A stretch of DNA of 64,000 nucleotides. It comes from a phage. The stretch lies in assembly GCA_011911785.1 (NCBI GenBank), contig GCA_011911785.1_4084.1, one strand, 5' to 3'. Shown here one piece after another: positions 1 through 14,953 of this stretch. The notes under the pieces are model-generated. The model was given only the letters and a program-made list of their open reading frames with translations. It was not told the origin of the DNA and ran no database searches. The translations under genes and the position numbers were made by a program. Numbering within the stretch: position 1 is the first letter of the stretch; every line of letters begins with the position of its first letter.

Positions 1-76
1 AGATGCCCAATTTTACTTTGACCTTAGTGATTATGATATCATGTTGGATCATATTAATCGTGTAGGAGAATTGTAA
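1..76 (+). CDS. 3' end of upstream gene (partial), C-terminus resembles FQxS-family members
   Basis: Frame from nt 2 reads DAQFYFDLSDYDIMLDHINRVGEL*; FYFDL tail resembles C-termini of 76..579 and 1799..2269; stop overlaps next ATG (TAATG). Confidence 0.5.
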   Translation, partial: DAQFYFDLSDYDIMLDHINRVGEL

Positions 77-579
77 TGCCTGATATTAGCAAACTTAATT
101 ACGATGAGATTGAACAGTACGCAAAAGATATCTACGAAATCTATGATGAATTCAAGAACAATACTACAGCATTTGGTTCAATGTATTCTCGAAAAAAGAG
201 TCTTAACAGGGATAGGAAAAGTTGTTTAACATATACACAGAAATCGGGCGAAATGATGGAAATCTTCTGTGAATCATTTGATGATAGTGAATATAGTGTA
301 GGCATGAATTACCTATCTTACTCAAAAAAAGGTGAAGTTGTAGTAGATTTACGTCTTGAAAATGGTCGTAATAGAAAGAGTAGTATCAATGAAGAAGATG
401 TAAAACTAATTTCTGAAGAAGATTACTTTCAGTTAAGTACTACTATGAATATGTTGGTATTGAATGTCATAACACTCTACGGTTTCCTTCGATATAAGCA
501 TGAAATTGAAACTGACTTCTATTTTGATTTGAATGATTTTGAAGTATGTAAGGGATATCTAAATGGGAAAAGTAGTTGA
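76..579 (+). CDS. hypothetical protein, FQxS-motif paralog family (A)
   Basis: 167 aa ORF; core motif EEDYFQLSTT; tandem with paralogs. Confidence 0.7.
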   Translation: MPDISKLNYDEIEQYAKDIYEIYDEFKNNTTAFGSMYSRKKSLNRDRKSCLTYTQKSGEMMEIFCESFDDSEYSVGMNYLSYSKKGEVVVDLRLENGRNRKSSINEEDVKLISEEDYFQLSTTMNMLVLNVITLYGFLRYKHEIETDFYFDLNDFEVCKGYLNGKSS

Positions 580-901
580 TATTGAGTACATGCACGATGG
601 TGATGAAATTTTCATTGTCCAAAAAGAATGCAAGGCTGGACATTGGGTTATCTTCTCTGTAGAAGAGGATGAATCCATTGTATCTTTTATTTCTACTAAA
701 CACAAAGATACGAATTTAGAACTTCTTTACAATTTAAGTGAAGAAGAACTATTTCAAATGAGCACTGCATTTGAATATGATGTATACGAATTATTAGATG
801 TACAGAATATTTTGTTGGAGTCTCTTCAGAAACTAAAACACAAAGATTTATTTCTGGTTAAATCATTTATGATGCACAAATTTACACTTGAGGTGGATTA
901 A
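563..901 (+). CDS. hypothetical protein, family A
   Basis: 112 aa; motif EEELFQMSTA. Confidence 0.65.
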   Translation: MGKVVDIEYMHDGDEIFIVQKECKAGHWVIFSVEEDESIVSFISTKHKDTNLELLYNLSEEELFQMSTAFEYDVYELLDVQNILLESLQKLKHKDLFLVKSFMMHKFTLEVD

Positions 902-1332
902 TGTATTTTGAAATTATAAAAGTTAAATCAAAGGCTTTACTTAATACAAGATTTCAAACGTATGGTTGCACTCATAGTGTAATGCTGGATGATAATAACG
1001 AATTGTATTATTCTAAAGTAACACAACCAGTACCGGAGAATAAATTCTATATCTATTCTCACAAAGATAACTCACAATATGACATTGAGAATCTCGCTGT
1101 AATGCCACCTGACGAGCTATTTCAGTACAGCTTAGTATGTCCTTACCGTGGTGATATTGACCTTCTCAAGAAGATTCAGGAGGGTTTAATGGACTTTGTG
1201 CCTAAGTCTAGCCCTGAATATTTTTCAACTAATGTAGAGTTTTTAAAGATCGAAAGAGAAATTCCTGATTATATGCTTAGTGATGATGAGTTCTACGATA
1301 AGCATTTCCCAGGAAAAAAATGGAGAGATTAA
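901..1332 (+). CDS. hypothetical protein, family A
   Basis: 143 aa; motif PDELFQYSLV; start overlaps previous stop. Confidence 0.7.
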   Translation: MYFEIIKVKSKALLNTRFQTYGCTHSVMLDDNNELYYSKVTQPVPENKFYIYSHKDNSQYDIENLAVMPPDELFQYSLVCPYRGDIDLLKKIQEGLMDFVPKSSPEYFSTNVEFLKIEREIPDYMLSDDEFYDKHFPGKKWRD

Positions 1333-1802
1333 TGACATTCCAGGAAGATATTGATTTTGCAAAAAAGATTTACAAAATTCATCTTATAATGGAAAGTACT
1401 GAGTTCCAAAATCGTTCATATGTCGATAAGATTAAAAGCTGTGATAAAAGTTCATTTGTCATAAAACTACCTACATTCAAATCCAAAAGAGAGGCCATCT
1501 ACGCTACGATTTATGATGATTCAGAATACAATCTAATGGATTTGTACATGACCTTTACCCCAGGGAATACACTTGTATGTTACTTCCAATGGGAGGAAGA
1601 GACAATTGTACTTGATAATATAGGTTCTTATAAGCCTACTGAAGAGACGCACTTTCAGTTATCTTTGATCTATACAGAAGAAACAGTTCGTGCTATAATG
1701 TTGTATTCATATCTCAATAGTGTAAATGCCAGTGCTTTCTATCTGGATTTAGTACATCTTGAACTTATTGAGGAATTACTTGCAGAGGAACTTTCTCTAT
1801 GA
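1320..1802 (+). CDS. hypothetical protein, family A
   Basis: 160 aa; motif EETHFQLSLI. Confidence 0.7.
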   Translation: MERLMTFQEDIDFAKKIYKIHLIMESTEFQNRSYVDKIKSCDKSSFVIKLPTFKSKREAIYATIYDDSEYNLMDLYMTFTPGNTLVCYFQWEEETIVLDNIGSYKPTEETHFQLSLIYTEETVRAIMLYSYLNSVNASAFYLDLVHLELIEELLAEELSL

Positions 1803-12656: not shown

Positions 12657-13072
12657 TGATGATTCTATACCATGCAAGTACTGTTAAAATTGACAACTTC
12701 TACATTCCTTATGGTGGTTTACATATGGGAGGGAAGCATAGTGCTCTTGAGGCTGCGTTACGCAAGCTGAGAAGCCCACTGAACGTTGTTGATGCTGACA
12801 CGGTGTACTTGCATACCTTAGAAGTTGACGTTGATAACGTGCTTCTGTGTGAGGATATGGGTAGTGATGACGAATGGCGATCACTTATTGAGTATTGTGA
12901 TACTGAAGGTTACGATGCAGTTCAGTACAAGAATGAATACGAGCCGGACAATGTTCCTAGTTATATGATTTGGGATACATCTAAAGTTCGTATTGTTGAA
13001 GTTGATGCTATGCATATGGATGAAGCTGAAATGATTATCGAAGATTTTCTTGATGAATATGAAGGTGTATAA
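12653..13072 (+). CDS. hypothetical acidic protein
   Basis: 139 aa; N-terminus MMMILYHAST, acidic C-terminus; no FQxS motif. Confidence 0.6.
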   Translation: MMMILYHASTVKIDNFYIPYGGLHMGGKHSALEAALRKLRSPLNVVDADTVYLHTLEVDVDNVLLCEDMGSDDEWRSLIEYCDTEGYDAVQYKNEYEPDNVPSYMIWDTSKVRIVEVDAMHMDEAEMIIEDFLDEYEGV

Positions 13073-13596
13073 TGACTGATTCAATGACAGTACTGGTACG
13101 TACTAAGTTACTATTGAAGATTGGTGAGATTTTCACAGATCTTATGCACAATCAAATTGATATTACAGAACTAGATATTAAGCAACCGTGGGAAATTACA
13201 AGGTTCTCGGCGTTCCACCGATTGTCATATAAAGGTGAAACTGTTCTTGATTTTAATCACAAAGCAAAATTCATGGATTATGCCGCGTTGTACCGAAATA
13301 ATTATTCAGGTTGTATAACCAATAACTTCAAAGGAATAAAAGTACAGATTGAATCAATTGAATTTAACGAATTACTATATCCAGAATTTAAGTTAACTGA
13401 AGAATCTATGTTTCAGTACTCACTAATTCTAAAAGATCTAGAAACTCTAGAGTACTACAGAGAGTTAGTAGATATTTTTATGAATGTTCGTCTTTCAAAA
13501 GATATTGTGATATTCTGGTATACAGAGCGTATTACAGAGGAAGTACTTGAAGAATTTCTCGTAAATATGACAGCTATTAAGGAGAATTTATGTTAG
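13072..13596 (+). CDS. hypothetical protein, family A
   Basis: 174 aa; motif EESMFQYSLI. Confidence 0.7.
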   Translation: MTDSMTVLVRTKLLLKIGEIFTDLMHNQIDITELDIKQPWEITRFSAFHRLSYKGETVLDFNHKAKFMDYAALYRNNYSGCITNNFKGIKVQIESIEFNELLYPEFKLTEESMFQYSLILKDLETLEYYRELVDIFMNVRLSKDIVIFWYTERITEEVLEEFLVNMTAIKENLC

Positions 13597-14054
13597 ACAT
13601 TTTAGGAAACATTGATACGGTAAACTTTTTTATTCAAGACGCAATTATCAATATCACATCAAAGCCAATCCAAGTTAGAAGTAACTTTTATAGTGGGGAT
13701 GGTTATATGGTTGATATTGTTGAAGTTAAGAAAAATGTTTTCCAAATCAATATTCTCACACAAACGAGAACACAGATTTCTCGTATCATCATCAATAAAG
13801 ATGAAGCCGTCATTCGTTATAATTCAAAATTCATGATGTTCTTTAAAAAGAAAACTGGTATGTTCAGTACTAATCTCTTTGATGAATCATTTTATTCAAC
13901 CGATGTGGAATCTACCTTCTTCACACAAAGTACATTTATCAAATTTGATAGTATTGAGTTCGATTCAAATATCATGTCAGAAACATTACAATGCCTAAAG
14001 GTATTACATAATGAATTTACCAACTTTATCGATAGCCGAAACAAGATTAACTAA
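13590..14054 (+). CDS. hypothetical protein, family A
   Basis: 154 aa; motif ESTFFTQSTF. Confidence 0.6.
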   Translation: MLDILGNIDTVNFFIQDAIINITSKPIQVRSNFYSGDGYMVDIVEVKKNVFQINILTQTRTQISRIIINKDEAVIRYNSKFMMFFKKKTGMFSTNLFDESFYSTDVESTFFTQSTFIKFDSIEFDSNIMSETLQCLKVLHNEFTNFIDSRNKIN

Positions 14055-14469
14055 TATAAATGAATTAGTTAATGCTATCTTATCATGCAAATTAAAAATT
14101 GATACCAAATGTAAGTACAATGGTATTAATTTATACAAATTAAAATATTCACGAATACATAATTCAGTAAAATACATTTACGGTACTAGTCAAATCATCT
14201 TTGAAACGGTTACAGTGAACAGTAAATTACTTATTGATGTTTATATCAGTAATAAGATTAAAAATTCACAAAAAGTGTTGACAGTTTCTTCTGATAATGT
14301 TACTATGTTTGATACCAACAATAAGAAGTTAGATATTGATTTAGATGTTATTCTTGATGGTGACTTATTCCAGTACGAGTGTATTGGTCTAAATAATCCA
14401 TTTGATAAATCAGTACTAGTCAATTTAATCAAACATATTAAGGGTATTTTAGATGAAACTAACAACTGA
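14011..14469 (+). CDS. hypothetical protein, family A
   Basis: 152 aa; motif GDLFQYECIG; start uncertain (overlaps upstream by 44 nt). Confidence 0.6.
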   Translation: MNLPTLSIAETRLTNINELVNAILSCKLKIDTKCKYNGINLYKLKYSRIHNSVKYIYGTSQIIFETVTVNSKLLIDVYISNKIKNSQKVLTVSSDNVTMFDTNNKKLDIDLDVILDGDLFQYECIGLNNPFDKSVLVNLIKHIKGILDETNN

Positions 14470-14953
14470 TATGAAACTTTGCATTTCTTTGATTATGCGT
14501 TCATTCGATGACAAAAGGACAAGTAAAGTTACTATCACCAATGACCATTTACAATGCAGTACACTCAATAGTACTGTAGTTTTCGGATTACATAGCCTCC
14601 GTTTGACGATAGTAAATAATATTGACAATACGGCGATGTGTATTACCCCCTGCCACGTTCAGGATGAACATGGTGTTTATCTTCACCACATGGGGACTTC
14701 GTATTTCATTTTCAATGAAGAAAAGGGAGTACAAAAAGACTTTAACACGTTGTGCGTAGACGGCGGTGAATTGTTCCAGATGGGAACTTTATATCAGTGT
14801 GATTTTACTGATACATCTGAAGTACTTCCATTATTTCTTGATCTCATTAAGAATTTAGGTTCATTTACTGGTCGCTATAACAAATCATTAAAGGCACAGG
14901 CAATTCAAAATATCTCGGAAGCAATAGAATATTACGAAAACGCTGTGTCGTAA
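14453..14953 (+). CDS. hypothetical protein, family A
   Basis: 166 aa; motif GGELFQMGTL. Confidence 0.65.
   Translation: MKLTTDMKLCISLIMRSFDDKRTSKVTITNDHLQCSTLNSTVVFGLHSLRLTIVNNIDNTAMCITPCHVQDEHGVYLHHMGTSYFIFNEEKGVQKDFNTLCVDGGELFQMGTLYQCDFTDTSEVLPLFLDLIKNLGSFTGRYNKSLKAQAIQNISEAIEYYENAVS

Follow-up and report, generated by a model that had tools for sequence, protein, structure and literature searches.

The 64,000-nucleotide stretch of phage DNA analysed here (contig GCA_011911785.1_4084.1 of assembly GCA_011911785.1; hereafter, the window) begins within a tandem array of short genes, most of which encode members of one extremely diverged protein family carrying an F-Q-x-S motif. The open reading frames (ORFs) of useful size across positions 76-14953 all lie on the plus strand and are tightly packed. 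Bases 1-15000 align over their full length, with 99.0% identity, to Escherichia phage A4 (ON286972.1), a jumbo myovirus of the genus Asteriusvirus with a 355.5-kb genome and E. coli LF82 as isolation host. The window differs from the deposited A4 record by 143 substitutions within the first 15 kb and represents a close relative of A4, distinct from that record. A further 33 Asteriusvirus-like phages of E. coli and Salmonella match the window only at about 12650-13930, with 81-85% nucleotide identity.

A diverged protein family with an FQxS core

Counting the motif set the family apart from its background. FQx[ST] occurs in 19 plus-strand ORFs starting before position 14954 and the longer form, [DE][DE]xxFQx[ST], in 14, as compared to means of 1.05 and 0.03, respectively, when these protein sequences are shuffled. 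Of the 91 ORFs in the rest of the window, three carry the shorter form and none the longer one. Pairwise BLASTP among window ORFs connects just three of them, indicating that the family is very diverged. A hidden Markov model (HMM) iterated from these three ORFs, and run against all window ORFs along with reversed and shuffled decoys, gathered 16 window members with no decoy below 1e-3. Enlarged with relatives from other genomes, the HMM recovered 21 window ORFs at E<1e-3, the best reversed decoy standing at E=0.11. Alignment with MAFFT, whether of 16 or of 77 sequences, places an invariant F, an invariant Q and an S conserved to at least 90% each in a single column; sharing one alignment column, the FQ matches are positionally homologous. 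Across 117 members, F is found in 115, Q in 116 and S in 100, with Glu or Asp at positions -4 and -5. Both the family and its motif are therefore real, far beyond chance. The original prediction, made from the DNA letters alone, had proposed a single diverged paralog family built around an invariant F-Q-x-S core. The alignments and the counts bear this out, the matches proving homologous in position rather than scattered, and the array exceeds what is visible in the window.

The same prediction had put the number of members within positions 1-14953 at about 26. Membership is supported for 19 of the 27 ORFs (Table 1), with three more backed by weak or transitive evidence and the remainder either unsupported (ORFs 4642, 8890 and 13590, which score like negative controls) or unrelated. 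The three weakly backed ones, ORFs 7211, 11443 and 14011, are probably degenerate members, with hhalign probabilities of 20-39%. The 121Q ortholog of ORF 7211 identified by BLAST (15557-16141) is a member by HMM, while its ortholog in L006 (14931-15551) is not; for ORF 11443, it is the L006 ortholog that is a member. Outside the array, the segment 25973-27237 had been read as one longer member; membership holds, but the segment contains two genes. A second longer member, placed at 17660-18499, was rejected, since neither HMM nor hhalign supports it. Altogether, family genes cover about 11.3-12.3 kb of the window instead of the predicted 16 kb.

The array genes overlap or abut one another (gaps of -44 to +9 nucleotides) and 21 of the 27 have a Shine-Dalgarno-like sequence. 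All are intact and constitute separate cistrons, with start and stop codons of their own. Only two real gaps interrupt the array (82 and 73 nucleotides), and each contains a terminator-like hairpin and a near-consensus sigma-70-like promoter. A few of the genes are foreign to the family. The 470-amino-acid protein with a methyl-accepting chemotaxis (MCP) signalling domain, whose N-terminal half is hydrophobic and probably multi-pass, is carried only by A4 among 50,697 phage records; its other matches are at most 35% identical and come from bacterial or contaminant sequences. The non-member encoded at 12653-13072 coincides with the mosaic junction listed in Table 1; it is very acidic (isoelectric point 4.2), shares 92% identity with its counterpart in 121Q and is also represented by an ortholog in RaK2. 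Just beyond the array, at about 15600-16300 (15625-16271 of L004), the A4 record has two ORFs that are absent from the window, one for a putative HNH endonuclease and one for a hypothetical protein; another A4 ORF annotated as HNH lies near position 17938 of L004. These extra HNH ORFs reflect presence or absence of mobile elements between near-identical phages.

Table 1. Features of the array and of its outlying members. Positions refer to the window; E values are from the family HMM unless a profile is named; aa, amino acids.
Positions	Strand	Feature	Evidence or remarks
1-76	+	3′ end of upstream family member A4_368	A4 annotation extends the gene into the window
76-579	+	Family member, 167 aa, EEDYFQLST	E 6e-20; phrog_12674
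563-901	+	Short member, 112 aa, without N-terminal helix, EEELFQMST	E 1.5e-8
901-1332	+	Family member, 143 aa, PDELFQYSL	E 2e-10 after iteration
1320-1802	+	Family member, 160 aa, modelled protein; A4 start at 1332	E 7e-23
1799-2269	+	Family member, 156 aa, EEMYFQNSL	E 5e-17
2279-2785	+	Family member, 168 aa, the only strongly basic one (isoelectric point 9.3)	E 8.5e-18
2760-3374	+	Family member, 204 aa, DETLFQYSL	E 4.8e-11
3379-4011	+	Family member, 210 aa, EEAFFQNSL	E 6e-14
4008-4559	+	Family member, 183 aa, DGVLFQYST	E 4e-13
4548-4610	+	Terminator-like hairpin (4548-4569), then near-consensus sigma-70-like promoter (4582-4610)	Consensus matches only
4642-5190	+	Family-sized ORF, FQ replaced by FM, membership unsupported	hhalign probability 2.5%, equal to negative controls
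5187-6599	+	Non-member inserted in array: probable multi-pass membrane protein with MCP signalling domain	PF00015, E 7e-37
6604-6644	+	Terminator-like hairpin overlapping sigma-70-like promoter, second intergenic gap	Consensus matches only
6616-7227	+	Family member, EEQNFQSSV; A4 start at 6673	E 1.9e-8
7211-7783	+	Probable member, 190 aa, EAYLFQLSL	E 0.005; best decoy 0.11
7761-8339	+	Family member, 192 aa, EEELFQLST	E 1.5e-13
8336-8896	+	Family member, 186 aa, DCDCFQKSL	E 3e-8
8890-9375	+	Family-sized ORF, membership unsupported	hhalign probability 0.2%
9368-9826	+	Family member, 152 aa, EATIFQLST	E 1.9e-12
9801-10304	+	Family member, DEVEFQNST; A4 start at 9813	E 5e-9
10306-10908	+	Family member, 200 aa, EEWYFQNTL	E 3e-12
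10911-11450	+	Family member, 179 aa, EEEHFQHST	E 8e-13
11443-12060	+	Possible degenerate member, 205 aa, KGALFQMGV	E 0.13; hhalign probability 39%
12057-12656	+	Family member, 199 aa, EEMAFQSST	E 5.6e-9
12640-12675		Mosaic junction	Amino-acid identity to 121Q-type phages of 24-38% gives way to 92%, with 81-85% at the nucleotide level
12653-13072	+	Non-member: conserved acidic protein inside array	phrog_11632 match; hhalign probability 0.2%
13072-13596	+	Family member, 174 aa, EESMFQYSL, 79% identical to 121Q ortholog	E 4e-8
13590-14054	+	Family-sized ORF, membership unsupported	hhalign probability 0.8%
14011-14469	+	Possible degenerate member, DGDLFQYEC	E 0.0026; hhalign probability 28%
14453-14953	+	Family member, 166 aa, GGELFQMGT	E 1.1e-7 after iteration
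25973-26551	+	Outlying member, 192 aa, LPEHFQMST, 87% identical to 121Q	E 6e-7
26548-27237	+	Outlying member, 229 aa, EEEHFQLMM, 85% identical to 121Q	E 4e-12

Extent, history and surroundings of the array

In A4, the array runs on for about 15 kb upstream of the window, starting from record position ~30.7 kb, and includes some 23 more members there. The partial gene at the very start of the window had been taken as a hint of such a continuation, and rightly so, as it is the end of A4_368, whose full ORF (19579-20076 of L001) scores E 4e-22 and carries the motif ECEYFQYCT. In all, at least 43 copies are arranged co-directionally, in a tightly packed tandem array, over about 30 kb; positions 1-14953 of the window correspond to the downstream half.

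The array recurs in other phages. A first scan with a broad profile, free of decoy matches, counted 30 or more members in a 41-kb stretch of 121Q and 32 in a 50-kb stretch of Klebsiella phage RaK2; after iteration, the counts were 36 and 32, respectively. A metagenome contig of 28% GC contains 28 members in 18 kb. Gene order is kept in 121Q, phAPEC6 and the metagenome contig, and it is partly colinear even with RaK2, which belongs to a different genus. When 1.84 billion cluster representatives were scanned exhaustively with HMMER, the 16-sequence profile matched no more than 88 proteins at E<=1e-3. Their lengths are 82-210 amino acids throughout, and nearly all have EEx[YHF]FQxS[TL]; a word-indexed homolog search with a profile of that size returned only four. 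Twenty of the relatives were traced, either to metagenome assemblies or to Salmonella/Escherichia phage contigs of ~350 kb, none exceeding ~356 kb. tblastn with a distant member found matches in RaK2-like Klebsiella phages only. In BFVD, structural similarity was seen solely with uncharacterised proteins from 121Q, RaK2, GAP32, SP27, Serratia phage BF and Yersinia phage fHe-Yen9-03. The family was thus found only in RaK2-like jumbo phages.

Searches of Pfam and NCBIfam gave no match for family members, as did a profile search of PDB sequences; PADLOC, whose models describe defence rather than anti-defence proteins, gave no convincing match (best E 0.0017, for one of 16 members). The proteins therefore do not fall into an ordinary, known family by any of these searches. 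In PHROGs they are spread over more than 12 unrelated-looking groups of unknown function (window members match phrog_12674, 9317, 22855, 34636, 30625, 35972 and others). Individual genes are thus already catalogued there as hypothetical, but no entry captures the motif that unites them, their fold or their homology across the array.

Most A4 members match their positional counterpart in 121Q better than they match any other A4 paralog. Together with the shared gene order, these positional best matches indicate that the expansion is old and that individual paralogs have been kept. Divergence from 121Q is strongly mosaic. A4-type and 121Q-type positional orthologs within 76-12656 are just 24-38% identical; ORF 3379-4011, for one, is 31% identical to its ortholog in 121Q and 34% to that in RaK2. 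Identity to 121Q is 84-89% in flanking genes (methyltransferase, RNA ligase and polynucleotide kinase among them), and some members in the upstream part of the array are 78-90% identical between A4 and 121Q. Nucleotide matches from other phages all begin at 12649-12671. An edge this sharp suggests that a block was exchanged by recombination for a distantly related allelic array. As far as the sequences tell, the divergence that ends abruptly at about 12650 looks like a block swap rather than locally fast evolution. ORFs 6616, 8336 and 8890, as well as the MCP gene, have no counterpart at these positions in 121Q.

Family genes of the window and of A4 differ by 68 synonymous and 43 non-synonymous codon changes. 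In the comparison of 121Q with phAPEC6, family genes have a ratio of non-synonymous to synonymous polymorphism (pN/pS) of 0.26, and other genes one of 0.21. The family genes are under purifying selection, with pN/pS at about 0.2-0.26, and the diversifying selection envisaged by the original prediction is not seen at the whole-gene level.

Downstream of the array, on the same strand, lie genes for RNA ligase, polynucleotide kinase, DNA ligase, ClpP, PTH2, Sir2, a Nudt16-like Nudix protein and a cREC receiver domain. The RNA-repair and conflict genes are located at 27499-30650, 36254-36673 and 61557-63198 (plus strand) and comprise RNA ligase, polynucleotide kinase/phosphatase, PTH2-like peptidyl-tRNA hydrolase, Sir2, Nudt16-like Nudix and a cyclic-phosphate-processing cREC_REC domain. 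One of a pair of plus-strand ORFs, listed jointly at 40957-41652 and 59677-60282, encodes ClpP protease (PF00574, E 8e-42); its partner, linked to ClpP distantly by BLASTP, is hydrophobic at the N-terminus and matches nothing in Pfam. Another paralog family, distinct from that of the array and with proteins of ~90-115 amino acids, is found at 22032-23379 and probably also at 23442-24115 and 31213-35002 (plus strand). Five of its ORFs are joined by BLASTP and HMM, while those at 23825, 23442, 31515, 31213, 33270 and 34748 are borderline (E 0.001-0.05). Finally, a minus-strand run at 44617-59478 encodes very large proteins (567-1881 amino acids) with many repeat modules of ~90-100 residues, apparently immunoglobulin (Ig)-like. 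Several of them share an N-terminal segment of ~130 amino acids that also stands alone (44617-45030). They are candidates for the hair or whisker proteins reported in 121Q-like phages.

Predicted fold and role of the motif

Family proteins are 110-230 amino acids long, soluble, hydrophilic and mostly acidic, with a median isoelectric point of 4.9 and a net charge down to -21. A first AF2 model obtained with the 16-sequence alignment was poor (pLDDT 60) and was replaced by a run with 77 sequences on the product of ORF 1320-1802 (pLDDT 84.8, pTM 0.82). The model has a helix at residues 7-25, seven strands between 35 and 98 and a helix at 108-117 which contains F112 and Q113, followed by a helix at 120-134, a strand at 140-143 and a helix at 144-158. 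The predicted fold therefore consists of an N-terminal amphipathic helix, a meander sheet of about seven strands and variable length, a short central helix and C-terminal helices. Two details of the original prediction are recovered here: the N-terminal helical segment, in the model as well as in column conservation, and the FYxDL-like C-terminus, as an FY[LIF]D[LFI] element near the C-terminal end.

Conservation across the 117 members is concentrated in the hydrophobic residues of helix 1, an aromatic pair on one strand (Y76, Y79), D100, the hydrophobic face of helix 3, the block [ST]107-E-E-x-Φ-F-Q-x-S-[TL]-[VIL]-[YHF]-[DN]119 (Φ, hydrophobic) and F-Y-[LIF]-D-[LFI] at 140-144. The motif helix is modelled with high confidence (pLDDT 92-94 over residues 108-117), and only positions 110 and 114 vary within 108-119. 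Conservation on all faces suggests that the helix is enclosed by the rest of the fold. Its [ST]-E-E start is a typical helix N-cap with acidic first-turn residues. From the periodicity of conservation and the secondary structure, rather than from coordinates, we infer that the motif is a buried structural keystone of the domain; as such, it would be neither an exposed peptide nor a cleavage site.

Other candidate identities for the motif or the fold were considered and discarded. The bacterial β-clamp-binding peptide, QL[SD]LF, sits exposed at a terminus or in a loop and is hydrophobic at positions 2, 4 and 5/6. The motif reproduces this pattern only in part: position 2 is variable, position 4 is Thr in half of the cases and the sequence lies inside the putatively buried helix. 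Foldseek similarities to p32/gC1qBP, frataxin, Bet v 1 and SycE-like folds (template modelling (TM) score ~0.2, probability at most 0.12) amount to noise.

Possible functions of the array

The array products do not appear to be part of the virion. In phAPEC6 the orthologous array corresponds to gp404c-gp452c, and the virion proteome of this phage (Table 1 in PMC7247149) has no entry between gp347 and gp549. A virion or ejected protein was thus discarded on the basis of a relative, not of the phage analysed here. In the related phage CBB, the equivalent block of short hypothetical genes has RpoD-like promoters and is suspected to contain early host-takeover genes (PMC5259590). CBB_390-546 and the early regions of T4-like and RaK2-like phages represent the same kind of compartment, made of co-directional short uncharacterised genes with sigma-70-like promoters; the CBB paper counts 22 paralogous ORFs but does not define a family.

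Overall, we see an even case for an ancient, extremely diverged tandem array of early-expressed host-interaction binders in an A4-like jumbo myovirus. The functional part of this proposal is tentative and falls somewhat short of even: the proteins would be early-expressed soluble binders, each with a different and most likely host target, acting in takeover or counter-defence. Transcription of the array by host RNA polymerase would take place early and yield a small number of long polycistronic units. The helical core would be retained in every paralog, with the variable sheet and loops providing each with a target of its own; likely candidates are host proteins such as defence effectors, toxins and nucleic-acid-binding or metabolic proteins. 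The negative charge could help to occupy sites meant for basic partners or nucleic acids, and whole array blocks might be exchanged between phages by recombination. The absence of virion detection, the acidic and soluble nature of the proteins, the co-directional short genes, the sigma-70-like promoters and the neighbouring genes are all consistent with the host-takeover or anti-defence arsenal suggested by the original prediction.

A number of observations weigh against binders of this kind. Promoter-like sites are not enriched overall (106 versus 103 in shuffled sequence), nor do whole-gene pN/pS values bear the mark of an arms race. In diverged ortholog pairs, identity is 27% in the sheet, 33-36% in the helices and 58% in the motif, making the sheet only moderately more variable than the helices; the sheet is also the least confident part of the model (pLDDT 60-82). 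The modelled fold appears to have no solved relative, in a comparison covering PDB and BFVD only. The binder or counter-defence role itself is suggested by context and by analogy with other viral multigene families, and residues Y76, Y79, D100, E108, E109, Q113, S115, D119 and D143 could equally form a catalytic or ligand-binding site.

In a bolder form of the binder proposal, possible but rather doubtful, the array would be a germline-encoded repertoire on a previously unseen fold, with ~45 paralogs in conserved gene order, each neutralising a different host defence effector, toxin or hub protein. Sets of specificities would be reshuffled by block swaps, as the sharp junction at ~12650 suggests. 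Such a repertoire would be the phage counterpart of the host-range multigene families of large eukaryotic DNA viruses. Some of these, among the MGF360/505 families of African swine fever virus and the host-range families of poxviruses, have a demonstrated role in evading host defences. By analogy, the array may be likened to them for its tandem diverged paralogs, variable regions, gene gain and loss, block exchange and non-structural products. There is, however, no sequence or fold relation, the host here is a bacterium and a defence-evasion role is not demonstrated. The SUKH/Imm immunity arrays of polymorphic toxin systems likewise consist of small, often acidic α+β proteins encoded by tandem diverged paralogs. 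Immunity proteins of this type were discarded as candidates, with no match to SUKH, SMI1_KNR4 or Imm profiles or folds. No toxin gene lies beside the array, its neighbours being family members, the MCP-domain protein and unknown proteins. A DNA mimic of the Ocr/ArdA type was discarded too; the proteins are acidic, yet without any profile or fold match.

It is improbable that the proteins are enzymes in which the conserved polar residues form a shared active or ligand-binding site and paralogs differ in substrate. The invariant Gln, the nearly invariant Ser and the other polar and aromatic columns conserved across the 117 members would suit an active site. However, the proteins show no similarity to any enzyme fold or family, are small and extremely diverged everywhere else, and come in ~45 copies with indels throughout the sheet, which would be unusual for an enzyme; in addition, [ST]-E-E fits a helix N-cap, that is, a structural role.

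Chances are slimmer still that the array encodes dedicated assembly chaperones or morphogenetic factors, similar to secretion chaperones, for fibres, whiskers or large Ig-like proteins. This idea draws on the small size and acidity of the family proteins, on the very large repetitive proteins encoded on the minus strand of the window (44.6-59.5 kb) and on the presence of the SycE and SpcS chaperones among the best, non-significant Foldseek matches in PDB. Against it, those matches are at noise level, the array lies far from the structural genes, on the opposite strand and among RNA-repair and DNA-metabolism genes, and copy number is alike in phages with different fibre sets.

We attach very little weight to the notion of functionless or selfish duplicated DNA tolerated by a large capsid. 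Gene gain and loss between A4 and 121Q, family-sized ORFs without the motif (4642, 8890 and 13590) and the unknown function of the family would fit, but members are all intact ORFs with ribosome-binding sites, pN/pS is well below one at the values given above, and paralog order is kept between genera. Hardly credible, lastly, is the speculation in the original prediction that E-E-x-Y-F-Q is a processing site for a Gln-specific 3C/NIa-like protease: the Glu residues at P6 and P5 and the Gln at P1 are conserved, and near-consensus tobacco etch virus (TEV) sites such as EENYFQN and EEMYFQN do occur, but the motif is a confidently modelled helix whose conservation on all faces points to burial, P3 is Tyr in 35/117 and Leu in 34/117 members, the top three P1′ residues are Tyr, Leu and Glu and not the TEV-consensus Ser/Gly, the conserved Ser falls at P2′, the genes are separate cistrons, and ClpP is the only Pfam-recognised protease among the selected window ORFs scanned.

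A published survey of jumbo phages described a ~35-copy zinc-ribbon expansion in Bacillus phage G as unprecedented (Iyer et al. 2021, PMC7824862); the passages of this survey that were searched do not mention the present family. Phage G likewise has dozens of small-domain paralogs in one jumbo genome, with a function that is inferred only. Unlike the zinc ribbons, the present family is an α/β domain without known relative, its copies number at least 43, exceeding the phage G expansion, and their order is shared across several genera. The RaK2 paper notes that ~10% of the gene products are paralogues and says nothing more on them (PMC3622015). More generally, neither literature searches nor the papers on RaK2, CBB, phAPEC6 and UE-S1 and the jumbo-phage survey yielded a description of the family. 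As far as checked, what is new is the unification into one family, together with its motif, fold and scale, the individual genes having already been catalogued as hypothetical.

Although it occupies about 7-8% of a 355-kb phage genome and its order is preserved in at least four genera of RaK2-like jumbo phages, the family has no name, Pfam entry, solved relative or published description that we could find. If its paralogs were target-specific inhibitors, they would amount to an extensive set of ready-to-use reagents directed at E. coli and Klebsiella proteins, and could help to explain the host range of phages considered for therapy. Otherwise, they would provide a well-sampled case of a fold that tolerates divergence to about 15-25% identity around a 13-residue keystone.

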